Source: Schmidtea nova (lineage: Eukaryota). From it: 64,000 nt of DNA. A model generated the notes under the pieces. That model saw only the letters and a program-made list of their open reading frames with translations. It was not told the origin of the DNA and did no database searches. Shown in pieces: positions 2,776-64,000 of this stretch. Both the position numbers and the translations under genes were made by a program. Numbering within the stretch: position 1 is the first letter of the stretch; every line of letters begins with the position of its first letter. The stretch is taken from assembly GCA_044892505.1 (NCBI GenBank), contig CM097883.1, positions 338,520,001 to 338,584,000 on the forward strand, written 5' to 3'.

Positions 2776-3074
2776 GAATAAAGGATTATTCACTCAAGTA
2801 ATTACAATTATATAATTATGCTCAATATTACACCTGCTTTCAATCATTAAGGTTTACCAGGTCGTTTTCCTGAAGTTGAATAATATTTTAGTAGTATTTT
2901 GTATTGCTTGTGTTACTTTATTCTACGTGACTAATGGAGGGTTAAGTAATTAAAGTAACAACTTTACCATTTTAAATTTAATATAAGATTTTTGAGAATG
3001 ATTTAAAATTTTATGTATATTTATCAGTAGAGGATAGTGAGCGCTCGGTACCACTTTTTTCACATTGCAACGGT

Positions 3075-3530
3075 TGCTCAGGTTAGTACACACACATCAA
3101 TATATAATCCCCGAAGAACACGTTGCCAGGGTAAATACACACACATATATATCAATTTATAGTCCTAGTGAAATATGTTGCTAGGGTAAACACACATTAA
3201 TGTATTTTCTTCGAGGAAACTGTTTCCAGGGTAAATACACACAATAGGGTGACTTCCCTGAGGAACTTGTTGCCTGGGTAAACATACATACATACACATC
3301 AATATATAACTCTTAATGATAGATGTAGTTAAGGTAACTACACACAGCAATATATAGTCCCCGAGGAAGATGATGTCAAGGAAAATACACACAACAATAT
3401 ATAATCCCCGAGGAACCTGTTGCCAGGGTAAACACATATCAATATATAATCATCGAGGAACCTTTTGCTAGAGTAGACACACACATTAAAGTTTTGTCTC
3501 CTTGGAACCTGTTGCTAAGGTAAATATGCC
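3075..3530. repeat. Subterminal degenerate tandem repeats of the Polinton (mirror at ~13200-13660)
   Basis: Recurrent motif GTTGCCAGGGTAAACACACA...CAATATATAATCCCCGAGGAAC. Confidence 0.8.
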
Positions 3531-6500
3531 ATTGTGTAACGGCAGTGACTACTGTTGGTAACATCAAAACATACAACACATTAATTATTACCCTTAACAC
3601 ACACGATAACATGTTTTTACTTAATCGAATGACGTTTATGTTTTAATGTACTGACTAACATTTCGAGTAGTTGTTTATTAATTGATAATTTTTTGATATA
3701 TTATATAATTTTTGTAAAATGATCTTTAGAAAATCGAATATGAGAACTTTGAAAACGGATGAAATGAATGCGAGAATTGTGACAATAGTCGAAATTTTAA
3801 AGACGATTCTACAGAGTGCAACTAGAAGAGCAGATGAAATTTAATAATAATATTTGTAAACAGAAACAATTATTTTTACATTAAATAAAAATATTGACAC
3901 AAAAAAATGAAAACCCTGAACAATAAAACCGTTTGAAATCTTGTCAATACATAAAAACTTTAAAAATAATTAAACATAATAAACTAAAGAAATATAAAAC
4001 TAAATATAATGAAACCAATTATTTTTTAACAAAGTTTTATTCAATACAAATCTGAATTGGATATTTTATTTGAATTGAGAGCTGGATCTGAAACTGGAAC
4101 ACCAACCTGATCTTTTGATTGGTCTATAAACGAGCCACATCTCTTATAATGTCCGTATGCAAGACTTTCATTTTATCAACCCAAAGTCTTTTATCATCAA
4201 GATTAGTCAAGGCAATTTTCGAATATTTATTAGTAAAGAGTTGATTCTTACTAACTATTCTCGATTGATCAACAGAAACTATTGAATTATTATTATAACA
4301 ATCCAGATACGACTGATGATTCAGTTTAGTATCCTTCAATGTTATACCCTTAGCCTTAATGCACTCTTCATCACCTAAAAGACTGTAACACTTTGGCCTA
4401 AGGAATACCCACTCATCATACTTGAATCCTTTATTCTCGTCTTTGAATTTACCAATGACGGAATCTAGGTTCCTACTGTATAATGGGTGATTCGGATCAT
4501 AATTAGAAGTGTCAAGTAAGTTATCTCTTATCATGGCCGGTAAAAGAATATCAAGCTTACAATTTCTAATCTCCAAGAAGAAAGAATCTAAATCACCAGC
4601 AACGATGTTAATTTCGCAGTTGAATTCATTACGATATTTTTGTAATTCTTCATACTGCAGCTGGTACATCCTAAGTTTTGATAAATCCAGTACAGTTTGA
4701 CCAATGTAGCTGGGTCTATCTAAACACACAGAGTCTTTATTAAGCAACACAGAAACTAGGTCATCGTCAATTCTATAAGTTTTTCTAAAGGTAGGTTTTG
4801 AAGTATATGTAATCAGTTTTGATGCTGAATTACATAGTCGTAAATTAAGTCGTTTTTTAAGATTTTCAACCGTTTTCCCAAAAAGACTATTATTCAAGAG
4901 TTTGTAATAGTTTTTATCTAAAGCCGTAGAAGAAGCTGCCCTAAGTTCAGTGTTTGTATATATGTATTTTTTAAAGATAGGTTTCTGATTGTACTGAACA
5001 GCCCGATGAACTCGTGTTATTTTAACACCCAAATAAACAAAAAGCTTGAGAAGTCTCCAATGAACAACATAGTTGAACTTTGGATAATGCATAAGCATTA
5101 ACTTCTGAACTTTTGAACCCGGAGCACACATTTTCTCTGATGCAACCGGAAAATCATTTAATTTATCGTGAATTTCTGAAGGGATTTCAAGATCCACTTC
5201 AAAAGTCACGCCATAAGTTAAAATAGCCAAATCAGCATCCATTAATTTAATTTATTTATTTAATTTATTTTGATCTGTGTTCCAACTAAATTCACCATAA
5301 GGTAATTTTTGACTTAAAGCCCACCCGTATAAATTATTTATGTCAATATATAAAAGTTCAATCGTTTCGGAGAATACTACATGGTGCTTGTTGACAAATG
5401 TCAATCCACCACGGATCCCCCCTTCGAAAAAATTATAAATCTCCATATCCTGGAGCAACTCAATAGGTTCTTCCAAGGTAATAAGCGCAGAAGCCCACGA
5501 CATACCTGGAATCCCCAAGAAATTCAAAGGCTCAAGTCTATTGTGAGCTATAGATTTAGCCCTAAACTGTTGAAAGAAATCAGCAAGAAGAAAAACATCC
5601 AGTTTAAGGTAGACCATCATATAGTCACAAAGAGTTTGACACTGGGATTCCCTCCAAATCACCAATGCCTTGTCATATTCATCTTGTTTAACACCTTTCC
5701 AGATTGGTGGCAACTCATAAGTGTTGTTAAGAATGTTAAGATGTTGCAAAATCATAAGGAAAAATACCCTTACAGTCAACAATAGTCCCGGCGAATTCAG
5801 ATCTAGTCAAAGGCAAACAAGTAAGAGTCTTAACAGCGTCATTTAAACTAAAATTTACAAACTGACAAGAATCGATGAATTTAATGGTTAAATCACTAAC
5901 CCTTGCAGACAATGTCAAGAACTTTTCACTAGTTGTAGGAATACAAGAAATTTTCCAAGTTGAAAAATTAACCAAACCATATTTAAGAATATGGTGCAAG
6001 TCATAGCCCTTTAAATTATGAAAAATAATGGGTAAAAACTTGTATAAACGACGGGATTGATTACAAGAATTACAAGCAGCTCCCAAAAATTCACCAGTGT
6101 AATGATCATGGTCTCTGACTGGTTGTACTAAAGTTTTCCTACAAAGATAACAAATAGTAGCAGAATCAAAAGATTGTTGATTAGCCGATGTCATAAAAAG
6201 AGGTTTCTTGTAATTAGTTCTATAAAAGGGATAAACAATAGTTTCAGAAATATTACTAATTTCAGTAAGAAAATTAGTAACGCAATCAAGACCTAAGAAA
6301 CTCTTGTAAATCTTTTCTCCAGTAAAGTTATTTACAAGTAAAAGACCGGCAGATATTGGGACATGTCTTTGAAAGTACTTATCATCAGCAGGTAAGATTG
6401 CCTCAAAATCGGCGTAAACAACAAAAGGTGGGGTAATTGTTTTGCCCCAATTACTAAATTGTAAATCTTTATTTCTAGGCAGAGTATAAAGAGTTTTGCC

Positions 6501-6809
6501 TAATTTATTTTTAGCACACAACTGTTGATGACAATCGAATGCTTCCTGTTTTCGAAATCCATTCAAGCATCGATGACACCATATACTTTGTACGCGAGCT
6601 ACAGAAAGAGATCTATTGTCGTAATTTAAAAGCTTATCAAGATCGGTGACTGCAATATAATGATATGCATCACAACTTTCCAACAAAATCAAGTTAATAG
6701 GAGTACCGTCAATAACTTTCGACCTATGAATTATATCGACACAAGGATGTTTAAAAACTTCAGGGTCTTCCAAGGTATCAAGAAGAGCATCTTCATCATA
6801 AGATAAAAC

Positions 6810-7038
6810 GGTGCTAGGACAAAATGTCAAGTGACATTTTGTCCGTGACATTTTGTCCGTGACATTTTGTCCGTGACATTTTGTCCGTGACATTTTGTCC
6901 GTGACATTTTGTCCGTGACATTTTGTCCGCGGACATTTTGTCCCGTGCCATTTTGTCCTCATGACATTTTGTCCGTGACATTTTGTCCGTGACATTTTGT
7001 CCGTGATATTTTGTCCGCGGACATTTTGTCCGGCCACC
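6810..7038. mobile_element. Short MULE-like non-autonomous element made of 14-bp GGACAAAATGTCAC repeats
   Basis: Starts GGTGCTAGG and ends CCGGCCACC. Same termini as 7204-7890 but in inverted orientation. Flanked by the reverse complement of GTTTTATC at 6802-6809. Confidence 0.75.
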
Positions 7039-7203
7039 CATTTTAGCTATTTTGAAATATGATGATGTAGATGGACACAGATATAGGACAAGTAATTATA
7101 ATCTTTCGGATCTTGTCTTTGACCCTTCAGAAATGCCCATGAGACTCTGTAATATTCCAAAATTTGAGGCTAAAAATCCCGGACTTGCTATTAATGTTTT
7201 ATC
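7039..7203 (+). pseudogene. polB: Inverted internal segment of the polB gene
   Basis: The plus strand reads ILAILKYDDVDGHRYRTSNY...KNPGLAINVLS. This bridges the minus-strand ends CFIYSI (7891) and VLSYDEDALL (6809). Confidence 0.85.
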
Positions 7204-7890
7204 GGTGGCCGGACAAAATGTCCGCGGACAAAATGTCATGAGGACAAAATGGCACGGGACAAAATGTCCGCGGACAAAATGTCACGGACAAAATGTCACG
7301 GACAAAATGTCACGGACAAAATGTCACGGACAAAATGTCATGAGGACAATCAAACTTCTTCGCCGTCAATTGGAACTGGGAACAACGGCTGGGAGGAAAA
7401 AGAAAACATACATCCGCGTCAACGAGGCATTGCATGTCATGGTGACCGACTACAACAACCGAGATCCAATCACATATTTAGGAGACATTGCACGTGTTTT
7501 AAACATTAATGTTGTTTGACTTCATTAGTTATTTTCATTGATAAAAGACTCGATTATTTATTTTTAAAAGCGTTTTTAAAATAAGCTAATAATGTTATAA
7601 GACTAAGCTATTTTATTAACTGAATATCTAACACTAAATTAATATAGGCTAGATATAATTATTATAATAAAGTTAGACTAAATTTGATAAATGCATTATT
7701 GAAATATTTTCATTGTTTTTCTGTCTTATATTTTTTTCCACAATTTTTGTCTGTGAGTCCGTGACATTTTGTCCTCATGACATTTTGTCCCGTGCCATTT
7801 TGTCCTCATGACATTTTGTCCGTGACATTTTGTCCGTGACATTTTGTCCGTGACATTTTGTCCGCGGACATTTTGTCCGCGGACATTTTG
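7204..7890 (+). mobile_element. MULE-like deletion derivative with tandem-repeat subterminal inverted repeats and a transposase C-terminal scrap
   Basis: Ends GGTGGCCGG and CCTAGCACC. 14-bp repeats in opposite orientation at each end. RKKKTYIRVNEALHVMVTDYNNRDPITYLGDIARVL resembles animal MULE transposase C-termini. 8-bp GTTTTATC at 7196-7203. Confidence 0.65.
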
Positions 7891-10515
7891 TCCTAGCACC
7901 TATATAATGCTATAAATAAAACACAAGTCGTCAGAATTTCTTACATTTACTGTACAATATTTTAACTGTAAGGATTGAGGGGTTTGAATGTGACTACGTC
8001 CACTTAATCGACTAATTTGAGCAAATTTAGTTACAACGAAATGGATTTCATTAACTTTGTTAATAACCCAATTACTTCCCTTTTCATTAATTAATGCTAT
8101 TTTTTCATTTAAAAGAGCAATACCCTCGTCAAAAAAGGTGTCACTCATAGGTCTCGCAGAATTTGAAATGATGAAGGATTGAATTTCCGCATCTTTTTCA
8201 AACTCTACGTCAATACAAAATTGTATTTTCACTGAACCCATCTCATTAATAACATTATTTAATTTATTAATTAAAATATCAGGTAAAATTAAAGTTTTCA
8301 AAACCAAGTGAGAAACATCCATTTTTACAACAGCGTGAGATTTTCTCAAATCAAATTTAACGTTAGGAAGAAGGGACCCACCATATTGAACATCTATGGT
8401 GTTAATGTCATTATTAAAACTTGTGTCAGAGTCGGAAAGAATTTTCATATCAGACATTACCTCGTCAACTATATTACTTAATTTTCTAACTTTTGTAGGT
8501 AGTGGATTATCGATAAGGATTTTTCTTTTATTATTAATAACATTGATATCACTATTATTTATTGTTAAATTAAAAAGAGATTTTTTCGAAGATCTAAATT
8601 TCCTTAAATGATCCTTATGGTCATCATAAAAGTTCAAAAAAGTCGAATTTTGGGTGGTCTTACATACGGGACATATAAAAAACGTGACTCCTTTATACGA
8701 ATATCGGTAATATTTTCCCATTAATTCAATACATTTATTATCATGAATTGATGATCGGCAAAATTTCGGAAAAAGTTTACCTGAAATATAAAAAATAATT
8801 AAAAATATGAACAATAAATGACAAGTATTTTAATATTAAAATTAATGTCATTATACAATAATTAATTAATAATTACAATAATAAAAATTTAATTAAATAA
8901 TTTAAATATTATGAAAAATAATATTAATTAATTTCAATTATTATATTCTTAATTATAATTGTTTTAATAATAAGTTTTACTCAAAGATGTGAAATTTAAA
9001 TTATTTACAAGTAATTTAAAAATATTAATTTAATATAATAATTTTCATATAGAACACATTATTTACTATGATAGAAAATAAATTATTTATTAATAATTAA
9101 TTTACAAAAACTTTAATTACTAAAACATTATTAAAAAAAAAATTAATAAATAAATAAATAAAACAATAAGTAATAATAATCAATATTCAAATTAATTTTA
9201 TATTCAAGTTAATTAATTAATTATTATAAAAAATTAGAATAATTATAATTAAAACTAGAATTGTTTTAATAATTAGTTATAAAATAAAAATTCAAATTCA
9301 AAAATTGTAAATAATTTTCAAAAATTAGTAAACACTACAAAACTAATTAAAAAAATAATTATTAATTTAAATAATATAGTTAATTATTTTAAGTTCTCAT
9401 TAGTATTTATTAACTTATCAATGATAAATATTACAAATCTCTTTGAATAATAAATAAAGATTATCCGTTAAATTACAAAATTGATAAAGAAAACTAATTA
9501 TTAAATAATTTAAATTAATATTTATATACAAAGGTAATTAATTATAAATTGCAATCATTAAATAAATCGATACTTACAGTTATTTTCTTCTCTTTTCATC
9601 GTTAAGTTTATTTTTCATTAAACTATCCATTCTTTCAGATGCTTCAACATTGTTACCAATAACGTTGTTCATATTGTTGTCGACATCGTTGTTGTAATCG
9701 TTGTTCTTGGTAATATCCATATTATTGTTGGTATTGTTCATTTTATCTAAAATAAGTTGATTATTTAAAAACTTTAAAACAAAAATAACTTACCAAATTT
9801 AGGTTGCAGTAAAAAGTGATTCTTAAATGAAAAACTATTGCTTATATACTAAATTCAAAAACTTTTAACCAATCAAATTCGAGCAAACATACACACACGT
9901 TTGTAAATACCACAATGTAATTTATGTTTACAATTAAATTTTGTAAAATTATTGAACACATAATTTATTGTTATAAATATATGTCATCAATTAATGTTAA
10001 ATATAAATTATTATTAAAATACAATTTAATAAATAAAGATTAATTTTAAAATTAAATTTTACTAATAAATTATAAAAATTATTACAAGTAGTTAAAATTA
10101 ATTATTAGATAAATTGTAAATTAATTGAAATAAAAATTAATTAACTAAAATAAAAATTAATTAATTAAAAGTAAACTAATTATTCACAAAGTTATTAGTT
10201 TTTACATAATGATTATTGTAGAGAATTAGAATATAAATTGTTACAGTGAAAACACAATTAAAGTATCAAATAAAATCAATTATTTACAACAAAACCCATA
10301 TGTAACACCATAATTTTTAAATTTCTAATCAAACAATTTATTGGAAAATTTATACATATAATGAAAACTCTAAAAAATTATTTTAAAATTACAAAAATAA
10401 CAATAAAAAATGTGTGCAACAAGAAAAATGACTAATTTTATATTTTAATTTAAGTCATTTTATAGGAAATTAAATTCTACATATACACTGTTAATGTGAA
10501 AACTCATTATCTTTA

Positions 10516-12693
10516 TTACTAATTTTCTTACTGAAATTAGTAATATTTCTGAAACTATTGTTTATCCCTTTTATAGAACTAATTACAAGAAACCTCTTTT
10601 TATGACATCGGCTAATCAACAATCTTTTGATTCTGCTACTATTTGTTATCTTTGTAGGAAAACTTTAGTACAACCAGTCAGAGACCATGATCATTACACT
10701 GGTGAATTTTTGGGAGCTGCTTGTAATTCTTGTAATCAATCCCGTCGTTTATACAAGTTTTTACCCATTATTTTTCATAATTTAAAGGGCTATGACTTGC
10801 ACCATATTCTTAAATATGGTTTGGTTAATTTTTCAACTTGGAAAATTTCTTGTATTCCTACAACTAGTGAAAAGTTCTTGACATTGTCTGCAAGGGTTAG
10901 TGATTTAACCATTAAATTCATCGATTCTTGTCAGTTTGTAAATTCTAGTTTAAATGACGCTGTTAAGACTCTTACTTGTTTGCCTTTGACTAGATCTGAA
11001 TTCGCCGGGACTATTGTTGACTGTAAGGGTATTTTTCCTTATGATTTTGCAACATCTTTAGAAATTCTTAACAACACTTATGAGTTGCCACCAATCTGGA
11101 AAGGTGTTAAACAAGATGAATATGACAAGGCATTGGTGATTTGGAGGGAATCCCAGTGTCAAACTCTTTGTGACTATATGATGGTCTACCTTAAACTGGA
11201 TGTTTTTCTTCTTGCTGATTTCTTTCAACAGTTTAGGGCTAAATCTATAGCTCACAATAGACTTGAGCCTTTGAATTTCTTGGGGATTCCAGGTATGTCG
11301 TGGGCTTCTGCGCTTATTACCTTGGAAGAACCTATTGAGTTGCTCCAGGATATGGAGATTTATATATTTTTAGAAGGGGGGATCCGTGGTGGATTGACAT
11401 TTGTCAACAAGCATCACGTAGTATCCTCCGAAACGATTGAACTTTTATATATTGACATAAATAATTTATACGGGTGGGCTTTAAGTCAAAAATTACCTTA
11501 TGGTGAATTTAGTTGGAACACAGATCAAAATAAATTAAATAAATAAATTAAATTAATGGATGCTGATTTGGCTATTTTGACTTATGGCGTGACTTTTGAA
11601 GTGGATCTTGAAATACCTTCAGAAATTCACGAAAAATTAAATGATTTTCCGGTTGCATCAGAGAAAATGTGTGCTCCGGGTTCAAAAGTTCAGACGTTAA
11701 TGCTTACGCATTATCCAAAGTTCAACTATGTTGTTCATTGGAGACTTCTCAAGCTTTTTGTTTATTTGGGTGTTAAAATAACACGAGTTCATCGGGCTGT
11801 TCAGTACAATCAGAAACCTATCTTTAAAAAATACATAGATACAAACACTGAACTTAGGGCAGCTTCTTCTACGGCTTTAGATAAAAACTATTACAAACTC
11901 TTGAATAATAGTCTTTATGGGAAAACGGTTGAAAATCTTAAAAAACGACTTAATTTACGACTATGTAATTCAGCATCAAAACTGATTACATATACTTCAA
12001 AACCTACCTTTAGAAAAACTTATAGAATTGACGATGACCTAGTTTCTGTGTTGCTTAATAAAGACTCTGTGTGTTTAGATAGACCCAGCTACATTGGTCA
12101 AACTGTACTGGATTTATCAAAACTTAGGATGTACCAGCTGCAGTATGAAGAATTACAAAAATATCGTAATGAATTCAACTGCGAAATTAACATCGTTGCT
12201 GGTGATTTAGATTCTTTCTTCTTGGAGATTAGAAATTGTAAGCTTGATATTCTTTTACCGGCCATGATAAGAGATAACTTACTTGACACTTCTAATTATG
12301 ATCCGAATCACCCATTATACAGTAGGAACTTAGATTCCGTCATTGGTAAATTCAAAGACGAGAATAAAGGATTCAAGTATGATGAGTGGGAATTCCTTAG
12401 GCCAAAGTGTTACAGTCTTTTAGGTGGATTGTTATAATAATAATTCAATAGTTTCTGTTGATCAATCGAGAATAGTTAGTAAGAATCATCGACTCTATAC
12501 TAATAAATATTTGAAAATTGCCTTGACTAATCTTGATGATAAAAGACTTTGGGTTGATAAAAATGAAAGTCTTGCATACGGACATTATAAGAGATGTGGC
12601 TCGTTTATAGACCAATCAAAAGATCAGGTTGGTGTTCCAGTTTCAGATCCAGCTCTCAATTCAAATAAAATATCCAATTCAGATTTGTATTGA
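10516..12693 (+). pseudogene. polB: 5'-truncated second copy of polB (right arm)
   Basis: ORFs 10602-11546, 11556-12437 and 12424-12693. Shares the in-frame TAA at 11544-11546. Has a private ~64-bp deletion near 12425 and an intact C-terminal SLAYGHYK. Confidence 0.9.
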
Positions 12694-13743
12694 ATAAAAC
12701 TTTGTTAAAAATAATTGGTTTCATTATATTTAGTTTTATATTTCTTTAGTTTATTATGTTTAATTATTTTTAAAGTTTTTATGTATTGACAAGATTTCAA
12801 ACGGTTTTATTGTTCAGGGTTTTCATTTTTTTGTGTCAATATTTTTATTTAATGTAAAAATAATTGTTTCTGTTTACAAATATTATTATTAAATTTCATC
12901 TGCTCTTGTAGTTGCACTCTGTAGAATCGTCTTTAAAATTTCGACTATTGTCACAATTCTCGCATTCATTTCATCCGTTTTCAAAGTTCTCATATTCGAT
13001 TTTCTAAAGATCATTTTACAAAAATTATATAATATATCAAAAAATTATCAATTAATAAACAACTACTCGAAATGTTAGTCAGTACATTAAAACATAAACG
13101 TCATTCGATTAAGTAAAAACATGTTATCGTGTGTGTTAAGGGTAATAGTTAATGTGTTGTATGTTTTGATGTTACCAACAGTAGTCACTGCCGTTACACA
13201 ATGGCATATTTACCTTAGCAACAGGTTCCAAGGAGACAATACTTTAATGTGTGTGTCTACTCTAGCAAAAGGTTCCTCGATGATTATATATTGATATGTG
13301 TTTACCCTGGCAACAGGTTCCTCGGGGATTATATATTGTTGTGTGTATTTTCCTTGACATCATCTTCCTCGGGGACTATATATTGCTGTGTGTAGTTACC
13401 TTAACTACATCTATCATTAAGAGTTATATATTGATGTGTATGTATGTATGTTTATCCAGGCAACAAGTTCCTCAGGGAAGTCACCCTATTGTGTGTATTT
13501 ACCCTGGAAACAGTTTCCTCGAAGAAAATACATTAATGTGTGTTTACCCTAGCAACATATTTCACTAGGACTATAAATTGATATATATGTGTGTGTATTT
13601 ACCCTGGCAACGTGTTCTTCGGGGATTATATATTGATGTGTGTGTACTAACCTGAGCAACCGTTGCAATGTGAAAAAAGTGGTACCGAGCGCTCACTATC
13701 CCCTACTTTTATCGATTTATTTCATATTTAAAATAAACTGTTT

Positions 13744-16889: not shown

Positions 16890-18490
16890 ACACATTGCCA
16901 AAATAATTAAACAAAGACATGTTAATGCTAAAAACCTTAACAAAGACATTTAATGCCAAAATCCTTAACAAAGATATTTCAAATTACTTAACAAAGAATA
17001 TTCAATGCCAAATTACTTAACAAAGACATTTCAATGCCAAAATAATTAAAAAGACATTTCAATGCCAAAATAACTAAACAAAGACATTTTAATACCAAAA
17101 TCCTTAACAAAGACATTTCAATGCCAAAATAACTAACAAAGACATTTCATTGCCAAATACCTCAACAAAGACAATTCATTACCAAATTCCTTAACAAAGA
17201 CATTTCAATGCCACAATAATTAACCAAAGACATTTCATTGCAAAAACACCTAAACAAAGACATAGCAATGCTAAAAAACCTTAACAATGACATTTCAATG
17301 CTAAAATAACTAAACAGAGACACGAACAAAACATTTACTAGCAAAACCCTAGTAGCAGAATATCTTTTGTGATGGTTTTTATCTGCCAAAGCTTATTACT
17401 CGAACATTAATTACAATTCATTTTCATTCAGCATAATTTGATAAAACAAAGACATTTCAATACCAAAATCCTTAACAAAGGCATTTCAAAAAACTAAACA
17501 AAGACAATTCATTGCCAAATTGCTTAACAAAGGCAATTCAGGGCCAAATTACTTAACAAAGACAATTCATTGCCAAAAACCTTAACAAAAACATTTCATT
17601 GGTTAAATAATTAAACAAAGACATTTCAATGCCAAAAAACTAAACAAAGACAATTCAATGGAAAAATCCTAAACAAAGACTTTGCAATGCCAAAAAAAAG
17701 CTTAACAAAAACAATTTAATGGTTAAATTATTAAACAAAGACACATGACTCATGTTACGAAAATAGATTATATATGTACTTTTAAACATAGAATCTTTTC
17801 AAAGCAAAGACATTTCAATGCCAAAATAATTAAACAAAGACATTTCATTGCCAAAGCACCTAAACAAAGACATTTCATTGCCAAAATCCTTAACAAAGAC
17901 ATTGCAATACGCGTACATTGTAAGCAACATGACTAACAAAGGCATTGCAATACATATGCAAGTTAACAAAGACATTTCAATGCAGATACTAGTTAACNNN
18001 NNNNNNNNNNNNNNNNNNNNNNNNNNNNNNNNNNNNNNNNNNNNNNNNNNNNNNNNNNNNNNNNNNNNNNNNNNNNNNNNNNNNNNNNNNNNNNNNNNNN
18101 NNNNNNNNNNNNNNNNNNNNNNNNNNNNNNNNNNNNNNNNNNNNNNNNNNNNNNNNNNNNNNNNNNNNNNNNNNNNNNNNNNNNNNNNNNNNNNNNNNNN
18201 NNNNNNNNNNNNNNNNNNNNNNNNNNNNNNNNNNNNNNNNNNNNNNNNNNNNNNNAAGTTTTTAAAACTATATAAATATCATGCAAAAGATATTTGAGAT
18301 GTGGGTATGGTGGTTATATTCTCAAACATTCAAGATGTCAAAATGTGTAATATTATGTGTAATGTTATGTCATGTGCAATATTAACAAAGACATTGTAAT
18401 ACAGATGCAAGTTAACAAAGACATGTATTATTAGCAAGCCAGATTAACAAAGACATTGTAGTTGCAAGCCAAGTTAACAAAGACAAGATC
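16890..18490. repeat. Minisatellite, ~29-bp unit AACAAAGACATTTCAATGCCAAAA(T/A)...
   Basis: Dozens of AACAAAGAC-anchored units, interrupted by a spacer at ~17330-17440 and a gap. Confidence 0.9.
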
Positions 18491-18589: not shown

Positions 18590-18850
18590 CTATATGTATA
18601 TCACATGATATTCATCAATATTAATACCACAAGATTCACACTTATTAATATTTTTTAAACATTTTGAACAAATAATGACATGTCTACAAGGTAAATATAA
18701 AATGCCAACTCTATTGATATTACATATTGAACATGTGAGAAATCTTTGTTTGGTTTCTTCCAATTTCTTGGTTACATTTACCTCTAAAATATCCACATTT
18801 AGCATGAAAGTTCGAATAATAGTACGATATTTTCCAAGTCGAAATTCCAT
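18590..18850 (-). CDS. Small protein with an IAP-type C3HC4 RING finger (86 aa; possibly a fragment)
   Basis: CSIC-x11-C-R-H-x3-C-SK-C-x6-C-ES-C spacing preceded by KKLEETKQRFL, like the C-terminal RING of IAP-family proteins. No BIR domain seen. Confidence 0.7.
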   Translation of the reverse strand: MEFRLGKYRTIIRTFMLNVDILEVNVTKKLEETKQRFLTCSICNINRVGILYLPCRHVIICSKCLKNINKCESCGINIDEYHVIYI

Positions 18851-19959
18851 ACATGATCAGAAAATGGTACATACATACAAAAATAATCATAAAAATAATA
18901 TTATCACACCATTGCAAAATTATCACATTACACAAAAGCTTATCACATATATGAAATATTATTATACTTTTATGTAAAATACAAAGAAAAATACAAACAT
19001 ATACACAAAATATTATCACATTATAGTGCCTAAACAATAGAAATACTCACAAAATATATGAAAAAATGATCAAAGATTCACAAAGAAAATACACAAAAGA
19101 TTATCATATTATTGTTTAATAATATAAAAATACACTGAAATACATAGAAAATTATTAAAATGCATACAAGTATCATTACATACATGAAATATCATTACAC
19201 AAAAGGTTATAACATACATGAAATATCTAAATACAAAATATCAAAAGTACATAGAGATAAATCCTATACTCAAAGGATATCATTACATATATGAAATATC
19301 ATCACAAAATATCTTTACATACATGAAATATCATCATACTTTAATGCAAATATAGACAAAATATTATCATGCTATATTGCAAATATACTTAATATTTTAA
19401 AGAAAAAGAAATATCATAACCTTTGTCATTGTCCAAGAATTTTCGTATAAAATATTTTTTTTGTGACATCAGGTATGTGAAATCTAACTAAAAATTGAAT
19501 AAAATATTGCAAAAAAAATTAGGTCCCAACTAGCTTCCGAAGATATGCTTAAATTTATTGATAACCCCAATTACAATTAGGTTTATACCTTCACAGTAAC
19601 AATTTGTAATTTTTCGATTCTCCTCAAAATTGTTATAATTAACATTTTGAAATTTAATTTTGGTTATCGAAATTATTGGCTTCTTCTTTTATTTTTCAAC
19701 AAAATAGTACTTCACTAATTCTTAATTTCAATCAAAAAATTTAAAATACACCAATAACTTCGTAAAATATTTTTTACTAATTTTCACTAAATTTTTCACA
19801 AGAATTCTTCGTTCAAATGCTCTGTAGTCGTTCTTTTCATAAAGTTCTGGTATAAAAACACAATGAGAAAGCTGTTGTTTTTCTGTCTTCGTGTTACTAT
19901 GAAAATATTTTATGAGAAGAAATTCAGTTTTCCTTGAGTTTTTTCACATTCGTTGCTTT

Positions 19960-23915: not shown

Positions 23916-24551
23916 TCCGTGTTAAAATACTTTTAAATTTTGTTTTAAAAAATTTTAAAAAATATAAATTATTTATTTAAATTTTAACAATTTTAACTAA
24001 TAACTGCAATTTAACTTTTTATTAATTTTTAAATATTAAAAATGTACGTGTTCACAGCATTTTGCACATTAATTTACGGACCAAGCGATTTATCAACACG
24101 CTTCACAGTTAACACACTCAAAGGATACACCGGTTTTCATCGTTTAAAAGTAACTATGATACACGTAGGTGTGTACATAGGCTTGCCAGGTGTACGTGAA
24201 TTAGTGAAAACGTACCTAAAGGTAAGTTTAATTACTGATTATATTTTAAGTCGCACACATTTTTAAAAAATTGTTGTAATTTAAATCAAATAGTATAAAA
24301 ATACGCGAAAAAGAAAACAAAAATCAACCATTTACACATTAAAAATATGGTTTCGTTTATATTATGCTGCGTTTTTGTTTAAAGGGGAAAATTTACCATT
24401 TGTTTAAATTTTTAACAAGTGCCAGCGATCAGTGTGCTGTTATGTTTCATTATTCAAATATTTGTTCAAATTCAAATATTTGATTATAAAATACAATTCT
24501 GTGAATTTTGTGAATTTGTGTGTTTTTGGAATTTGTGTTATAAAATTAAAT

Positions 24552-24786
24552 TATTATTATCAATGATTCTCATAATGACTATAGATCAAATTTTTTTTTT
24601 ATAAACAATAACACAATATTTCGGCACAGCCTTTATCAAGTGTGTATTTCTGAATACACACTTGATAAAGGCTGTGCCGAAATATTGTGTTATTGTTTAT
24701 AAAAAAAAAATTTGATCTATAGTCATTATGAGAATTATTGATAATAATAATAAAAAAAGATCAAAGGTGAAAAAAGATAATTATGA
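24552..24786 (+). mobile_element. PLE-derived fold-back insertion with a 3' tail and 13-bp TSD
   Basis: ~200-bp palindrome plus unpaired tail AAAAAAGATCAAAGGTGAAAAAAGATAATTATGA. Direct repeat TATAAAATTAAAT at 24539-24551 and 24787-24799. Confidence 0.8.
24658..24690 (+). ncRNA. Minimal type I hammerhead motif, U3-A8 variant (mirror at 24611-24643, minus strand)
   Basis: Identical to the motif at 84-116. Confidence 0.65.
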
Positions 24787-29171: not shown

Positions 29172-30159
29172 CAAATATATATATATTTTGCACAATATAT
29201 TTCGAGAACTTCATCAGGTGCTACCAATGTTACATCCAAATATAAATCAAATAAATCGATTTTTTCGAAAAAATTAGTAATAATTTTTAAAATAAAATAT
29301 ATATTTTAAATTTTATTATAGTCAAAAAATTTAAATCGAAATAAAATTTTTAAATTTAAATAAATTAATCTTAAAAATATAATATTCTTTTATTTTTATA
29401 CAAAAAAATATTTTTTTTAAGAATATATTATAAATATTTTCATATTTATAAACAACAGAATGATTGAAAACGAAATCCATAATCCCCAATTGAAAATGCT
29501 CTAAAACTCGACTACAGAAAAGACGGTCAGTCTTGTCCAAAGTATGTGGCATTACGCCCATGACATTTGAAAAATTAAACGAGTATAGAACACAAATCAA
29601 AAGAAGAAAATAAACATCATCAACAACCACATCAGTTAATTTACTTAAACCGCAAAAAATGAGGCAACACACGGACTCAAAACTCTCACACTCACATATT
29701 CACAAACAACGATACGACTGAAAACAACGCTAAATCCTAATAATTGACTTCGCTCTGAAACTCGAATACAGAGAAGACTGCACTCGAGTTTTAGAACATT
29801 TTCAATTGGGGATTATGGATTTCGTTTTCAATCATTCTGTTGTTTATAAATATGAAAATATTTATAATATATTCCTAAAAAAAATATTTTTTTGTATAAA
29901 AATAAAAGAATATTATATTTTTAAGATTAATTTATTTAAATTAAAAACTTTTAAATTCGATATAAATTTTTTGACTATAATAAAATTTAAAATATATATT
30001 TTATTTTAAAAATTATTACTAATTTGTTCGAAAAAATCGATTTATTTGATTTATATTTGGATGTAACATTGGTAGCACCTGATGATGAGTATTAAGTTCT
30101 CGAAATATATTGTGCAAAATATATATTTGGATTGGCGTTTGTTGTTAATTATATTAATG
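29172..30159. mobile_element. Penelope-like element remnant: degenerate GIY-YIG 3' end plus pLTR, with an inverted partial copy
   Basis: The minus strand near 29500-29600 reads C..NATYFG/KTDR.FCSRVLEH across a frameshift. 29172-29510 is inverted against 29783-30130. Hammerhead in the pLTR; flanked by gaps. Confidence 0.75.
30075..30115 (+). ncRNA. Minimal type I hammerhead ribozyme with canonical CUGAUGA/GAAA core
   Basis: GCAC-CTGATGA-T-GAG-TATTAAGTT-CTC-GAAA-TATAT-T-GTGC: stem I GCAC/GTGC, stem II GAG/CTC, palindromic stem III. Confidence 0.8.
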
Positions 30160-30628: not shown

Positions 30629-31924
30629 CGTGGTTGGTTCATTAAGTACCTGCAGTCGGTATCAAAAACAAAAGATATTGACAAAACACATTTATTTTTA
30701 GAATCTACGACATGTCTAGGCTTATTTTTCAATGTAAGAGCCATTGTTCTCAATACACTTTTTCCAACGAACAAGAAGTTCTAAAAACCCGTTATTGTAG
30801 AACGATTTTGGTTTTTCGTCGAAGAATTTTGTTACTTCCTCCTTTAGTGAATCACTAGAAACAAAGAATTTACCAGCCAAGTGTTTCTTCAAATGTCTAA
30901 ATAAATAGAAATCACTTGGAGCCAGATCAGGACTATAAGCAGGATGTTCCAATGTTGAAAAGCCACATCGAACAATTTTCTCCGACACAAGTTTTGATGC
31001 ATGAATTGGAGCATTGTCGTGATGCAGCCACAAATTTGTGTTTTTCTTTTTTCGTCGAAGCTTCCGAGTTTGTTCAATGAGATTAGAATAATAAACACTG
31101 TTAATTTTAACTTGTTTATCTGCGAAATCAATATTGATTATTCCATCACTATCCCAAAAAATCGAGAGCATCAAATTTCGACGGTGAATGGTTCCAGATT
31201 TCAGCTTCTTTGTCGGCTTTTCATCTAGAAACTTCCATTCTGCTGAAGATCTTTTACTTTCTGGAATATAAAGACTTAGTGGTGTCTCGTCTTCCGTTAT
31301 AATGTTTTTCAAAAATGACTCACCATGTTCCTCGAACAGTGCAAAATTGTGTTCACAAATCATTAGCCTTTTTTCACACAATTCAGCGGATAAAAAATAA
31401 GGAACAAACCTGCTGCACAACTTCCGCACACCCATCTCTTTTATCGTTTCATGACACTTACCGACACTGACATTGACCTCCTTCGCCAAATTTTTTACTG
31501 TAATCCTTCGTTCGTCTTTAATTAACGATTCAATCTGATTTTTCTTTCTGTCTTCATCAATTTCAATCGGTCTTCCTTGCTTTGATTCATCAATAACTGA
31601 CATTCTTCCACTTTTGAATTCACTAATCCAATAATAAATAGTTCTATCACATGGACAGTCTTCTTTATACGTCTCTTGGAGCATTGCTAAAATCTCTAAT
31701 CTTGAAGCCTCGCGCATTACAAAAAACTGAATCACCGACCGATATTCAATGCTTAAAATTGCCATATTTTGAATGATTAAATATTTGCTCTAAACAAATA
31801 TTGGTTAAATAAAACAAAATGAAGATTTCTAACCTTTTATAAATTCTCTACAACGGAAACATAAATTTGTTATAATATCTCTTATTTTTGATATCGAGTG
31901 CAAGTACTTCGTGAACCAACCACG
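30629..31924 (-). mobile_element. Full-length mariner transposon (1296 bp)
   Basis: TA TSDs and ~35-bp imperfect TIRs starting CGTGGTTGGTTCA. Confidence 0.95.
30722..31765 (-). CDS. Mariner D,D34D transposase, uninterrupted 347 aa
   Basis: ITEDET, HHDNAPIH and YSPDLAPSDFYLF motifs; FVPYFL in place of WVPHEL. Confidence 0.95.
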   Translation of the reverse strand: MAILSIEYRSVIQFFVMREASRLEILAMLQETYKEDCPCDRTIYYWISEFKSGRMSVIDESKQGRPIEIDEDRKKNQIESLIKDERRITVKNLAKEVNVSVGKCHETIKEMGVRKLCSRFVPYFLSAELCEKRLMICEHNFALFEEHGESFLKNIITEDETPLSLYIPESKRSSAEWKFLDEKPTKKLKSGTIHRRNLMLSIFWDSDGIINIDFADKQVKINSVYYSNLIEQTRKLRRKKKNTNLWLHHDNAPIHASKLVSEKIVRCGFSTLEHPAYSPDLAPSDFYLFRHLKKHLAGKFFVSSDSLKEEVTKFFDEKPKSFYNNGFLELLVRWKKCIENNGSYIEK

Positions 31925-33958: not shown

Positions 33959-35021
33959 TAGTGATTACAAAACCGGTAAACGGTTAACCGGTTTTACCGG
34001 CCAATTTGATTACCGAAATTACCGGTAAATTTAAAAAGAAATTACCGGTTCTTTCGGTAATTTTTTAAAAATTATTTCAATATTATCCTTGAAAAATAAC
34101 TGAACAATATTTTAAATTCATATCCGTTATCCAAATTCACCAATTAAAATTGTATGTCCTGAAAATTGTGTTAATTTTTAAATATTATTTTAAATATTTG
34201 TTTAAGTATTTCTTAATTCTGTTAATTTAAATGCTTGATGAATTGTCTGCACAAAGTAGTACTCTAAGCAGAGAATTAAAATATGAATTAATTTTACGAG
34301 TACAAGAGAGTAGCACAAGTTCTTCCAATGTTATCCAGTTTTTACATAATCCGCTTGAATTTAGGAATATTCATCTAGACTCTAGTGGTGTTGATCCAAC
34401 GACTTCAAATACATTATCAGATGACTGAGTCATTATGACTGATTCATTGGGTTCATTATTCTATTCACTGTCATTTATAACGTTTAAGAGTTCTATAAAA
34501 GACACAATACTTTATGTAATTTCAGGTTTATTAAATTTAATTTAATTTAATAAACCTGAAATTACAAAAAATATTGTGTCTTTTATAGAACTCTTAAACG
34601 TTATAAATGACAGTGAATAGAATAATAAATCCAATGAATCAGTCATAATGACTCAGTCATCTGATGATCGTGTATCTGAAGTCGTTGGATCAACACCACT
34701 ATCCATGAAAGGCAAGTTGCAATTGGTTATGAAACAAAAAATTGACTTAAAATTAAATAAAATTCCCCGCGCTCCAATAACAAAAAACGCCACAACCTTA
34801 ACAAAACTGGTTTAAAAGAAATCGCTGTGTTTGAAGAGGAACAAAGCCGTGGTAAATATTTAACGCTGGCGTTCAACCATCTTTCATCAATTAAACCAAC
34901 GAGTGTTGAATCCGAGCGAGCTTTTTCATCAGCGGGGGTAATATGTACAAAAATAAGATCCAGACTTAGAGATACCACAATAGATATGATCTGTTTGCTC
35001 TGTGCATATTTCAACGCATAA
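33959..35021 (+). pseudogene. hAT element remnant (left end with ACCGG subterminal repeats; transposase C-terminal fragments)
   Basis: TAGTGATTACAAAACCGG start. Peptides QFLHNP and IKPTSVESERAFSSAG...RSRLRDTTIDMIC. Right end not identified. Confidence 0.75.
34383..34701. repeat. ~150-bp-arm imperfect fold-back inversion inside the hAT coding remnant
   Basis: TAGTGGTGTTGATCCAACGACTTC...GAAGTCGTTGGATCAACACCACTA, centred near 34542. Confidence 0.85.
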
Positions 35022-37504: not shown

Positions 37505-37572
37505 AGTAAGGATAAGAAAGCGCACTGAACCACTTTTTTACATAGCAACGGTTGCCAATGTAAACAAACACA

Positions 37573-37607
<35 letters not shown>

Positions 37608-37970
37608 CTTGTTACAGCTGTCACTAAGGTATATATATTCCCTGTTACAGCTGTCACTAAGGTAAACACACACTCTGTTTTTCCGTAACTACTGTTGGTA
37701 ACGTCAAAACACACAAAATTATTATTATTTGTAAATTATTATTTGTAAACAAAAATAATTATTTTTACATTAAATAAAAACTATTGAAACAAATCATAAA
37801 AATATTACACTAATCAAGATGAAAACCATAACGATAAAACCGATTCAAATTTTTGACAACTCATAAAATTTTGAAAATGATTAAACATAATAAACTAAAG
37901 AAATATAAAACTAAATACAATGAAACCAATTATTTGTGACAAAGTTTTATTCATTACAAATCCTTATCTT
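37505..37970 (+). mobile_element. Diverged terminal fragment of a related Polinton
   Basis: AGTAAGGATAAGAAAGCGCACTGAACCACTTTTTTACATAGCAACGGTTGC aligns to 3026-3080. Further collinear matches to ~3550-4050. Confidence 0.75.
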
Positions 37971-47484: not shown

Positions 47485-47810
47485 AATTTTTTTGACCAAA
47501 AGATTTAGCATTTGTTTTTTAGTCTAGTGGTATTAAGCATATTGAAATTGGTCGAGTAGATTACTCAGAATTTTGAAATTAGTGAAGATCGATAATTGAC
47601 CAATTAGTAATAAAAATTTGAAATTTTTTCTTGAAGAAAAATTGTGAGAAATTATGTTTTAAATAATTTTTCAATCGAGAACCATACCAGAGTTTATCAG
47701 TCCACATCCTTAGAACATCATACAACAAAAATCCACGAAAATCTCAGTATCTCTGTGAAAAACGAATTCAGGTGAAAAAAGCCATGGAAAAAAGCCAAAA
47801 ACAATTTAGA
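47485..47810 (+). repeat. Unclassified repeat, second copy at 63693-64000
   Basis: Collinear direct match, visibly more diverged than the LTR pair. Confidence 0.85.
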
Positions 47811-47859
47811 TAATGTTACAATTATAAATTCATTTAACTCTCCCTTTAAATTTAAGGTC

Positions 47860-49532
47860 AAAATTTATTTTAAAAAATAAAGAGAAACGAACGACAAGAC
47901 GTTAAGCAGTAAAATAACGCAAGGGAAAATAAAAACAGTTAAGTACAATAGTAGTCATACGAACTGCATCTTATAAGTCTGTCGAGATAGGGTTAAAGCG
48001 ATAAAAAGAGGCATCTCAAAGGAGAGCACACAATTTGAGTGCAGGTCGGATTTACACACGAAGGACCGCATGAGAATTGAATGGAGAAGATCAGTGCTTG
48101 TAAAGTGATTATGAAAAGCATGATCAAAGAATAAAATCAGTATCAGAATAAAGAAAATAATTTATTAAAAATTATAGAATAAATTCCTATTGAAATATCG
48201 CAAAAATTAAGAGAGATAGGAATGAAAATAGATTTAAAATTAAATTGTTTTAATCAATAAATGCACAATAAAACAATGGATACACACCTAATTTAATAGA
48301 ATTAAAAACAAATATTTTCGAAATAAATAAATCAAATTATAAAGTTAAATTTATGAAAGATAAATAAATGCTCACTTATTAAAACTAATAAGTAAGTTTA
48401 AATTGTTAATAAATTATGTAAATAACAAATTATGTAAGCGTCAGAAAAATTAGTATAAATAGAGGCTGAAAAATCACAATCTAAACTTACTTGGCATTAA
48501 TTTACTGAGAGCAAAATTTTGGTTTTGATTTCGCCAGTCGTGTGGATCGATTTCGAGAGGGTATTTTTGAGTTATTTGAGTATTTTTGTGTGAGATGTGT
48601 TGGGTAATTTGTTATGTAGTGGTCATAGTAAAGTTTTGAGGCTAATTTTTCCGAAAATAAATATTCGAGGTTGAGTATTATTGTAGTCATTATATAAAAT
48701 TTTTATATAGATATGCTTCCTATGCTGCTAACGCGGCGGGGGAGACAGTCGTCATCGTGGAGCCTCGTTGTTTCACACGGCGGCTGTACCTTTTTATAAT
48801 TTATGTATCGGGGATTTTTTCGGATATTTTTTCGGTTGCACATAATGAATCGTTACACATAGAGAATAGTTTTGGTAATTGCGATAGATTTTGAGGGTTT
48901 CATATAGTGATAGGATTTTTGAGTGTTGAACGATAGGTTTTGAGGTTTGCGCATTTTTCAGCGATAATTTTGGAGTTTTACAGGAATTTTACATCTTAGG
49001 TAGTGATTTAATTTCAGAATTAAGATGTTAGCAAGACGAACTTGATCAATAGATTTTATTACGCATAGCGATGCAACGACATAGCGGTGATTTTGAGTAA
49101 AGGAGATTTTCGAGAGTTTTTATAAATAAATATAATTTTAAGGTGCAGCGCATTATTTTGGGTTTTATATAGCGTAAGGAGTTTCTAGCTAAATAAAATT
49201 TCTATTTAAAAAACGTTTGTTAATTTTTTAAGGAAGTTGAGCGTAGACATTGAGAGAATAACGCGTAAGACCTTCTAGCGGCAGCGGGAACCCGTGAAAA
49301 TAAATGGGGAGTAGTTCCAGCGATCGAGCTCACCTGCCCATCATTTTTCAACCACCGCGCGCAGTTCCAACCTAACTAGATAGGGAATAGTTAGGGGCGT
49401 GCGAGTGAGACGATTTGTTTTTATGTATGGTTATGGGTGAGGCATCCCTAGTATACTTATTTATGATTATTTGTTTAATTATTATTTATTTATTTATTAT
49501 TAATTATTTAAAACCCACCCATAAACCCAGCA
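47860..49532 (+). repeat. 5' LTR (5' end truncated or eroded)
   Basis: Matches 61960-63648 with about 15 substitutions and two small indels counted by eye. Lacks the TGTTGTTAAGCTGG start. Confidence 0.85.
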
Positions 49533-49716: not shown

Positions 49717-52141
49717 CCCTTTCGCCCCTATTGGGACAATACGTCCCAGAAACTTTCATCATGATCCTACTGGGATATTTTCAAAGCAATTTGCGGTGTT
49801 AAAGTTTATTTTTAGTGTTTCATTGTTCTATTTGAATTTAAAATATTTACCGTTAGGATTTTTCTTATATTTCTGTCAATTTTAATATAACTCGTGGACG
49901 GTCTCTTTTAGTGCTGAAGTAAATTTACAAATTTTAAGTGTTTTCATAAAAATAAAAAAAAAATAACATAATATTTTATTTTCGGAGCATAAAAATAACC
50001 GAATTACATTATAAAAAGTAAGTATTAATAAAATTTGTAGAAGATATTCGTAGTTTTTACTTTTGGGATTATATATCCCAACAGTATTTTATGGATTTTT
50101 TAATTGGGATATATGGTCCCAATAGTATTTTACATTAATGATTTTCTATTTTTTTAAAAAAAAATAGAATGTCTAACAGAAAAAAACTACTGGATCACGA
50201 AATAGAAGCACTTATGAATGCTAGTAGCGATGATGATGATCCAGATTTTGCAGTTTTTTTTGATACAGATTCAGAATATTTACCGAGTGATGTTGAAGAA
50301 GCAAATGAAAATATGGATGGAATAGTAAATCAATCTAACATTGATGAAGAAGATATTCAAATTGAACAAAACATCATACAACATGATATTTGGGTTGCTA
50401 CTGCTGAAAATTTTCGTCCTCGTATGGAAATACCACCAGAAATTCGGCCCAGTATAATTGCTGAACTAGATAGGTCATCAAGTGAGTTAGAAACTTTATT
50501 GAAAATATTTCCTAGAAGTTTATTTATTCATATTGCCGATTGCACAAACAAACGGATTGATATATTAGAAGCTACAACCAAAAAAACATTTACTAAAACT
50601 AATTACTCTGAAATAATGATAGTTGTTGGTGTTACGCTTATCATGTCCTATAATCGCTTGCCAAATCTGAGTTGTTACTGGTCGCTAAAAAAAGTAAAGG
50701 AAATGAACTCATCAAATTAGCCATATCGAGAGACAGGTACGCATTTCTAATGAGCAAGATGTACTTCTCCGACCCAAAAAAACCAGATGATGCCACAAAA
50801 ACATATTATATTGATGACTTGGTGGCATGCTTGAAAAATAATTTTATAAATGCCAGAGAAGATAGTACTTTCCAAAGCATTGATGAAAGTATGGTGAAAT
50901 TCAAAGGAAGATCCAGCCTCAAACAATACCTTCCACTAAAACCTATAAAGAGAGGTATTAAAATTTGGGAACGTTGCGACTCACTAACCGGATATATATA
51001 CGACTTCAATATTTATTGCGGAAAGGAAACTTCTCCACAAGATGGTACATTAGGTGAGCGAGTGGTCAATAAGTTGTTGAAATCAGTAGTCAAGAAAAAT
51101 GTATGTTTTTGTTTTGATCGGTTTTTTACATCTGCCAAATTAATAAATGAAATTGAATATCCGGCTGTTGGCACATGCATGAAAAACAGAAAAAATATCC
51201 CGAAGTCTGTTAAAAAATTGAAGAGAGGTGAAAGCGTTGTGTTGAATAATCAATTTGGTACTTCTTGCATAGTATGGCAAGACACAAAAGAAGTACTCTG
51301 TTTGAGTAATTGTCATGGTAATCAAATTTCAACAACTCAACGTAAAGCCAAGACAGGTGAAAAACTAGATATTACTTGCCCGGAAGCTATAAAATTTTAT
51401 GGAAAATACATGGGTGGTGTAGATCTCTCCGATCAAATGGTATCTACTTATGATATAAACAGAAAATCTAATAAGTGGTGGAAGAAGGTATTTTATAAAT
51501 TGCTGCAATCGGCTTGCGTTAATTCTTGGATAATTTTCAAAGAAATACGTCATTAGGATAAGTTACCTTACTTTGAATTCCTTTTGGAAGTGGCTGAAGA
51601 TTTGATTGAAATCGGTCGAAAGAATGCACCCATAAAAAGGATGCGGAGTTATGGTCGTCCTTCAAAATCGGTGCAAAGTTTGGTAAATATTGGTGGTCAT
51701 CTTCCTGTTGAATGTAAAGAAAGACGTAGATGTGTAAGATGCGCCAATCAAAAAACAGGGAAACCAAAGGAGAAAAGAACTCGTTTTGTATGCAAAAGCT
51801 GTAATATTGCTCTATGTTTTGAATGTTTTACGCCATACCATACATAAATATAAAAACAAATGTATTTAATATGTAATTTATATATAAAATACAAAATAAA
51901 ACTATATTTTTTTAATCTTTTTCAAAAATTACTTTTTATATTTTTATATAAATTACCGCAACATTTATGATTTTGAATGGTCCATAAAAGCCTATTGGGA
52001 CTTATTATCCCAGGACTTTCTAGGATATTCAGAAGCGCCACGATTACAAAAATGAGAATATTTCATATTTAGGTCAATATTAACAAGTTCCAATATATAA
52101 ATTTAGCATAGTGTCATTAGCGGAAAGTCGGTGCGAAAGGG
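49717..52141 (+). mobile_element. Full-length piggyBac (PGBD4-like), 2425 bp
   Basis: TTAA TSDs and TIR CCCTTTCGC/GCGAAAGGG. Confidence 0.95.
50169..51847 (+). pseudogene. piggyBac transposase with one frameshift (A-run near 50690) and one in-frame TAG (51554-51556)
   Basis: SIDESMVKFKGR, CFDRFFTS, YMGGVDLSDQM, and C-terminal Cys-rich CVRC...CKSCNIALCFEC..YH. Confidence 0.9.
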
Positions 52142-63648: not shown

Positions 63649-64000
63649 TAAAGGAAGAGTTAATAAATATTAAGTTTAGCAAAACCATAAAGAATTTTTT
63701 GACCAAAAGATTGAGCATTTGTTTTTGAGTCTAGTGGTATTAAGCATATTGAAATCGGTCGAGTAGATTACTCAGAATTTTGAAATTAGTAAAGATCGAT
63801 AATTGACCAATTTCGTAATAAAAATTTGAAATTTTTTCTTGAGGAAAAATTGTAAAAAATTATTTTTTTTCATAATTTTTCAGTCGAGAACCATACCAGA
63901 GTTTACCGGGCCACATCCTTAGAACATTATACAACAAAAATCCTCGAAAATCTCGGTATCCCTGTGAAAAACGAATCCAGGTGAAAAAAGACATGGAAAA

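Follow-up and report, generated by a model that had tools for sequence, protein, structure and literature searches.

A non-autonomous Polinton derivative in Schmidtea nova with a right end copied from its left end

Polinton/Maverick elements of 13–25 kb carry terminal inverted repeats (TIRs) for which a range of 100–1,500 bp is given (bioRxiv 2023.08.22.554363), and the TIRs of 134 intact vertebrate Mavericks measure 46–1,447 bp (PMC8097293). In a 64,000-nt stretch of the Schmidtea nova contig CM097883.1 (positions 338,520,001–338,584,000; hereafter the window), we analyzed a Polinton/Maverick derivative of 10,682 bp at 3026–13707. Since the published Polinton TIR ranges do not exceed 1,500 bp, its 3.2-kb inverted arms lie outside them. 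The element resembles Polintons that encode an adintovirus-type DNA polymerase of family B that is protein-primed (pPolB, gene polB) with an endonuclease VII insert, sharing with them the pPolB (PF03175, PF02945), a 6-bp target site duplication (TSD) and terminal inverted repeats, and its AG-rich termini are similar to the (AGT)2 motif of vertebrate Mavericks (PMC8097293). However, it differs from these elements in its length of 10.7 kb, its 3.2-kb repeats, the lack of integrase and virion genes and its dead polB.

Replacement or regeneration of ends is known from several other systems. In the linear replicons of Streptomyces, which are terminal-protein replicons, the TIR grows when one arm replaces the other; unlike the integrating element described here, this takes place at the scale of a bacterial chromosome. 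Three of the 33 complete EMALEs of Cafeteria burkhardae (Cflag_215, RCC970_122 and BVI_005, with a TSD listed for two of the three) are truncated and flanked by TIRs that “must have regenerated” (PMC8547959). Like the S. nova element, these integrating virophage elements have lost part of their genome and yet are flanked by TIRs. However, EMALE TIRs reach at most 2.3 kb as compared with 3.2 kb, and neither genes entering the repeat nor a mechanism is stated in the available text of PMC8547959. In Drosophila mojavensis, 38 of 170 Galileo copies have extended or recombinant TIRs, which were explained by break repair from the other end (PMC3573991), and in the non-autonomous copies with extended TIRs (2RT), as in our element, internal sequence beside one end was copied in inverted orientation to the other. 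In contrast to the S. nova element, Galileo is a cut-and-paste transposon of the P superfamily without a replicating intermediate, its longest TIR measures 1,260 bp, and it recruits spacer DNA instead of coding sequence. Repeat expansion was also reported for Polintons according to PMC3573991, which cites three references including Jurka et al. (2007).

The geometry of the element is also that of defective viral genomes of the copy-back type, in which one terminus is copied onto the other to give a panhandle and which depend on a helper (PMC13506859). However, these genomes derive mostly from negative-strand RNA viruses and are defined by helper replication and often by interference (PMC13506859), whereas the element is known from its sequence alone. 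No polB inside multi-kb Polinton arms is described in the literature surveyed (mainly open-access papers, as titles and the beginnings of abstracts), and the available text of PMC11662393, PMC6431247, PMC12747079 and PMC8502044 holds nothing on a polB-arm structure. We came across no earlier account of a Polinton arm of several kb that includes polB; end regeneration itself has precedents, among which this example is unusually large. The structure is accordingly less new than was implied when an earlier reading of the same DNA (the original prediction) identified it as a copy-back-like Polinton, as truncated virophages with regenerated TIRs are known (PMC8547959) and TIRs of up to 4.4–8.4 kb are given in automated surveys of polinton-like viruses (PLVs; PMC12220804).

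A right end copied from the left end

The element starts and ends with AGTAG and is flanked by TTTATC at 3020–3025 and, as a perfect direct copy, at 13708–13713; the chance of finding this 6-mer at one fixed site is ∼8 × 10–4. The left arm (3026–6280, plus strand, 3,255 bp) is the donor, and the right arm (10516–13707, minus strand, 3,192 bp) is its inverted copy. The two are 99% identical, differing by 25 substitutions over the 3,184 columns of their alignment (0.8%) and by five indels within the arms. On the inside, the limits of the inverted match are exactly 6280 and 10516, while outwards the similarity halts at the termini of the element, the two flanks having no match to each other. At the junction (10515/10516), spacer DNA is joined to the copy of position 6280 with 0 nt of extra homology. 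Seven N-gaps are present in the window and none of them inside the element. The termini, TSD and arm boundaries of the original prediction were exact. The DNA between the arms holds the N-terminal 40% of polB, two Mutator-derived insertions and a 1.8-kb stretch of AT-rich DNA adjoining the start of polB, so that the DNA at the junction, which that prediction had described as unrelated, is not necessarily so.

A whole protein-primed polB pseudogene, DNA_pol_B_2 with an Endonuclease_7 domain, is located on the minus strand at 4041–8721 and directed to the left end. Profile searches matched DNA_pol_B_2, alone or together with Endonuclease_7, in four of the ten frames tested (Pfam; PF03175, PF02945). 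A search for polB homologues yielded 202 proteins, 120 of which were used in the comparisons, and the top homologue among the matches listed is a protein without a name that is ∼60% identical. When eight homologues were mapped on the window, they outlined a complete polB in pieces from 8721 to ∼4140, with residue 1 at 8721 in three of them and an end at 4139–4178 in all eight; three central pieces tile one gene. The pseudogene is broken by an in-frame stop, two frameshifts and nested insertions. A 5'-truncated copy of ∼60% of the gene lies in the right arm (10516–12693, plus strand). Judged by the eight homologues, the arm corresponds to the last 55–61% of the polB length (∼60% of the element's own gene), so that the share of two thirds proposed earlier is too large. 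The exonuclease I motif at 6416 lies outside the arm, and the right-hand copy starts 136 nt past it. Its beginning thus falls within the exonuclease domain and not at a domain boundary, and the copy is no coding repeat by design.

The two arms have in common an in-frame stop (5252–5254 and 11544–11546) and a departure in polymerase motif C (12207 in the right arm), where the residue of the window is found in none of 41 homologues and 40 of the 41 agree on one other residue. Frameshifts near 5737 and 4172, visible as frame changes against the homologues, are private to the left arm, and a 68-bp deletion near 12426 is private to the right arm. The original prediction had recognized these private lesions, with the deletion put at ∼64 bp; its further claim that the lesions are complementary does not hold, as the stop and the motif C change are common to both arms. 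For the shared stop, a non-standard genetic code was rejected on the basis of polB frames of 296–436 codons and a 355-aa mariner frame that are open under the standard code. An origin as part of a local tandem duplication was likewise rejected: the region measures 41 residues, and 31 of 41 homologues have 41–43. As its length equals that of the homologues, the shared stop is a point lesion.

The shared stop and the motif C change imply that polB was dead before copying or that the arms were homogenized afterwards. General decay before the duplication was rejected, with seven shared departures in 179 near-invariant columns as compared with 1–12 (median 4) in the 15 closest homologues, which is no clear excess and means that any such decay was short. 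Among the 633 codons compared between the arms, 15 differ, five synonymously and ten non-synonymously (neutral expectation 20.6% synonymous, p = 0.21), and at the ten non-synonymous sites the better agreement with the homologues is split 5 to 5 between the arms. These neutral-like differences and their even split indicate that the arms are one sequence that was duplicated and then decayed evenly, and not two functional lineages. Of the 22 difference events between the arms, 9 are clustered within 350 nt at 5091–5433 and 11365–11707 (p = 0.015); this cluster holds four of the five synonymous changes and is possibly a conversion patch from a third copy.

In agreement with the original prediction, no integrase, ATPase, protease or capsid gene was found, as none of the 42 non-polB frames of at least 28 aa matched at the curated Pfam cut-off, a search that short or decayed remnants could escape. 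The only weak Pfam match among these frames was XRN_M (E = 0.042, below the cut-off), the longest frame without an assignment in the element measures at most 94 aa, and Rfam gave no matches. With an autonomous Polinton/Maverick the element shares the protein-primed family B polymerase gene (as a pseudogene) and TIRs with an AG-type end motif and a TSD of the 5–8-bp class, but it lacks a retroviral-like integrase and the ATPase, protease and major and minor capsid genes, and its 3.2-kb arms and 10,682 bp depart from TIRs of 100–1,500 bp and a length of 13–25 kb. Polinton ends, a TSD and a polB remnant with no integration or virion genes are the hallmarks of a non-autonomous Polinton derivative, and one terminal region reversed onto the other end at a single non-homologous junction is the geometry of a copy-back genome. 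Taken together, the structure is real: a dead, non-autonomous Polinton derivative in which a copy of the left end has taken the place of the right end. The present genes of the element cannot have integrated it.

Native repeat length and origin of the copied end

The probable native terminal repeat measures ∼1.03 kb (3026–4052, plus strand) and comprises the AGTAG end, 45–47-bp subterminal repeats at 3090–3540 and the polB 3' non-coding region, its boundary being drawn from one relative only. Its right equivalent is located at 12682–13707 (minus strand), where AATAAA at 12693 directly follows the polB tail frame. The relative, the only other trace of the family in the window, is a diverged (∼80%) terminus at 37505–37962 (plus strand), which matches the tip and the 3' non-coding region of the element up to near the polB stop codon and measures ∼460 bp as compared with 1,030 bp in the element. 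The following 271 nt are not polB, as they were matched by 0 of 120 homologues versus 64 of 120 for the matching control stretch of the element (the same 120 of 202). A second terminus of the relative was not found in the window; an N-gap follows at 38234, and the other end is hidden or lost there. This one incomplete relative, perhaps a deletion product, suggests a native repeat of ∼1 kb and an extension of 2.2 kb.

The slightly favored explanation for the copied end, to which we assign a probability of about 0.45, is that the template was switched during protein-primed replication of a free molecule, which then integrated in trans. Synthesis would have started at the polB-side end and passed through polB and 1.8 kb further, and the polymerase would then have left its template at 10515 to prime again at 6280 on the polB-side strand, with no homology involved. 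Copying back to the terminus would have given a 3.2-kb panhandle with two valid ends and no integrase, ATPase, protease or capsid gene, and helper polB and integrase from an intact relative would have replicated and inserted the molecule, producing the 6-bp duplication. We infer that the switch occurred outside the chromosome, that a helper took part and that the events followed in this order.

The ages of the different parts of the arms bear on this proposal. The distal 1,027 nt contain five differences (0.49%) and the 2,157-nt extension 20 (0.93%; p = 0.28), while 14 or 19 distal differences would be expected if the tips were 1.5 or 2 times as old (P(≤5) = 0.004 and 0.0001, respectively). 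The tips are thus no more diverged than the extension, which fits a molecule that already had long arms at integration; a retained 1-kb native repeat with later inner copying should have left more diverged tips, which was not the case. The intact termini and TSD are also consistent with copy-back, and copy-back genomes are defined by the same geometry (review, PMC13506859). With tips no older than the extension and a junction without homology, the sequence leans to copy-back in a free replicon. As to the original prediction of a copy-back defective genome, the replacement of one end by a copy of the other is borne out, whereas the origin in a free replicon is only slightly favored, since break repair yields the same product.

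Several observations weigh against this origin. Given the stop and the motif C change present in both arms, polB must have been dead in the template, and decay in place followed by chromosomal repair accounts for this simply; under copy-back, either a dead copy must have been mobilized in trans or arm-to-arm correction is needed. The age test is weak near the tip, where a doubled age of the outer 250 nt still gives P = 0.054, and the cluster of differences described above (p = 0.015) is a hint of conversion or mutagenic repair in the chromosome at a later time. Finally, one copy of the fold-back form is known, and no helper is visible in the 64-kb window.

Break repair after insertion is a somewhat less probable origin of the same structure. 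A normal Polinton would have inserted, begun to decay and suffered a break or deletion in its right part. The repair, by one-ended strand invasion or by template switching at a fork, would have copied 3.2 kb from the left arm in place of most of the right repeat and connected this copy to the spacer with no homology at the joint. Such repair explains the shared lesions directly, keeps the TSD by construction, needs no helper after the rearrangement and is the model proposed for the extended TIRs of Galileo (TIR1-F1-F1-TIR2; PMC3573991). However, it predicts older divergence in any unconverted tip, and as none was seen, nearly the whole native repeat must have been overwritten; in addition, the Galileo extensions yield repeats of at most 1,260 bp with no transposase sequence (PMC3573991). 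We regard as improbable that a snap-back dimer, a long head-to-head palindromic product, integrated as one unit and was later trimmed by an asymmetric central deletion that left the 4.2-kb spacer. Long palindromes are unstable, and the dimer would account for the same geometry, the single TSD and the equal arm ages. For kalilo, a protein-primed plasmid, a hairpin deletion derivative has been recorded (as a title in the reference list of PMC11161782), but two rare events are required, and the spacer holds no trace of a former symmetry center beyond low-complexity AT matches.

Mis-joining of near-identical copies or haplotypes in a gapped assembly is hardly probable either. The seven N-gaps of the window mark a fragmentary assembly, and assembly problems at such elements are documented for EMALEs (PMC8547959), but the element itself is without a gap, its inverted match is exact to both termini between unrelated flanks with a direct TSD, the junction offers an assembler no overlap, and the three central polB pieces tile one gene. 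An artefact of allelic arms was rejected, as the inverted match does not extend into the flanks. A native design, in which most of polB would regularly lie inside the long repeats of a polB-only family, is very improbable. TIR maxima of 4,435, 7,179 and 8,386 bp in a PLV survey (PMC12220804, Table S3) and polB with TIRs but without integrase at ten Caenorhabditis elegans loci (bioRxiv 2024.01.15.575659) would agree with it; however, the copy starts inside the exonuclease domain, the relative at 37505 loses homology near the polB stop, and the medians in 11 PLV rows of the same survey are 320–620 bp (PMC12220804). The fusion by deletion of two separate insertions in opposite orientation is almost certainly not what happened: a cluster of Polinton insertions with ectopic recombination has been reported for eri-6/7 of C. 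elegans (bioRxiv 2024.01.15.575659), but matching direct 6-bp flanks would be expected only at ∼8 × 10–4, and the shared lesions and neutral differences indicate one template.

Nested insertions, spacer and neighboring features

Two Mutator-derived copies are nested in the middle region. Copy 1 (6810–7038, plus strand) has 14-bp tandem arrays and GGTG ends, and copy 2 (7204–7900, minus strand) is inverted to it; a 165-bp polB piece lies inverted between them (7039–7203, plus strand). The TSD of Mutator-like elements (MULEs) measures ∼9 bp, while at the nested copies an 8-bp duplication, GTTTTATC, is found at one breakpoint and an imperfect one at the other. Within copy 2, the C-terminal remnant of a MULE transposase (7352–7516, plus strand) shares 89% identity across 55 aa with a named MULE protein from the mussel Sinanodonta woodiana, a match that points to an animal host, with PF10551 in 3 of 14 matches, so that the nested copies show the transposase homology of a MULE derivative. 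The transposase tail is 89–96% identical to proteins of other sources including a freshwater mussel, and horizontal transfer may be involved; the Atlas gave no usable match for the peptide of the nested copy. The arrangement at 6810–7900, with two inverted Mutator copies around a 165-bp inversion, resembles a product of intramolecular or alternative transposition. Most probably, the Mutator insertions belong to the subsequent decay within the host genome. A Mutator-driven origin of the large duplication was rejected, as no Mutator end is present at 10516.

Upstream of the polB start, the AT-rich spacer (8722–10515, no strand assigned) extends over 1.8 kb with 9–24% GC per 200 nt and has no protein or RNA family match; it is either the promoter/leader of the element or captured host DNA. 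The polB strand carries splice-like sites: two donors, at 9793 and at 9577, and several acceptor-like sites including 9747 and 8781, one acceptor lying 59 nt before the start codon. A small Asn-rich frame is located at 9580–9741 within the splice-like region 8722–9900. A spliced N-terminal extension of polB was rejected, as the 169-nt exon-like piece has stops in all three frames and the two GTAAGT donors do not exceed the chance expectation (P = 0.06). The genes of vertebrate Mavericks are reported to be intronless (PMC8097293). A bacterial promoter scan was uninformative, with 10 promoters found versus 11.8 expected.

The remainder of the window holds further repeats. An open 355-aa mariner transposase frame (Transposase_1) is located at 30722–31789, and the regions 47488–48511, 50142–51556 and 61997–64000 contain a piggyBac-like transposase (DDE_Tnp_1_7) and 300-nt direct repeats that are 99% identical and 14.1 kb apart. 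Between these repeats lie two gag/zinc-knuckle frames (57338–60142) with strong strand skew, possibly a long terminal repeat element without visible pol. An isolated C3HC4 RING frame (18590–18856) adjoins a 29-bp tandem array at 16896–18485. Near-perfect short palindromes or fold-back elements with arms of 71–176 nt were observed at 1–149, 24550–24751, 34413–34668 and 29211–30085, one palindrome family being present at both 1–149 and 24550–24751, near hAT remnants.

Implications for Polinton biology

To our knowledge, the replication cycle of Polintons has been inferred from gene content and never observed. The original prediction likened the fold-back form to defective-interfering genomes and considered that it might itself be mobile; nothing was found in support of interfering behavior or repeated mobility, and one copy only is known. 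We consider it unlikely that this form is a mobile, helper-dependent Polinton lineage and thus a chromosomal fossil of a DNA copy-back defective genome. If it were, it would be direct evidence of extrachromosomal Polinton replication by strand displacement through a panhandle, lesions would reach both arms through arm-to-arm correction, and defective-interfering forms might keep the activity of Polintons down in an animal germline.

With a unique junction and an existing intact allele, the locus would be one more decaying transposon repaired from its other arm, notable only for the size of the extension and as a caution that such copies can inflate TIR lengths obtained automatically. By contrast, a rearrangement that is possible only in a free replicon would be a rare physical trace of the Polinton replication cycle, and it would show that the ends alone suffice for integration in trans.

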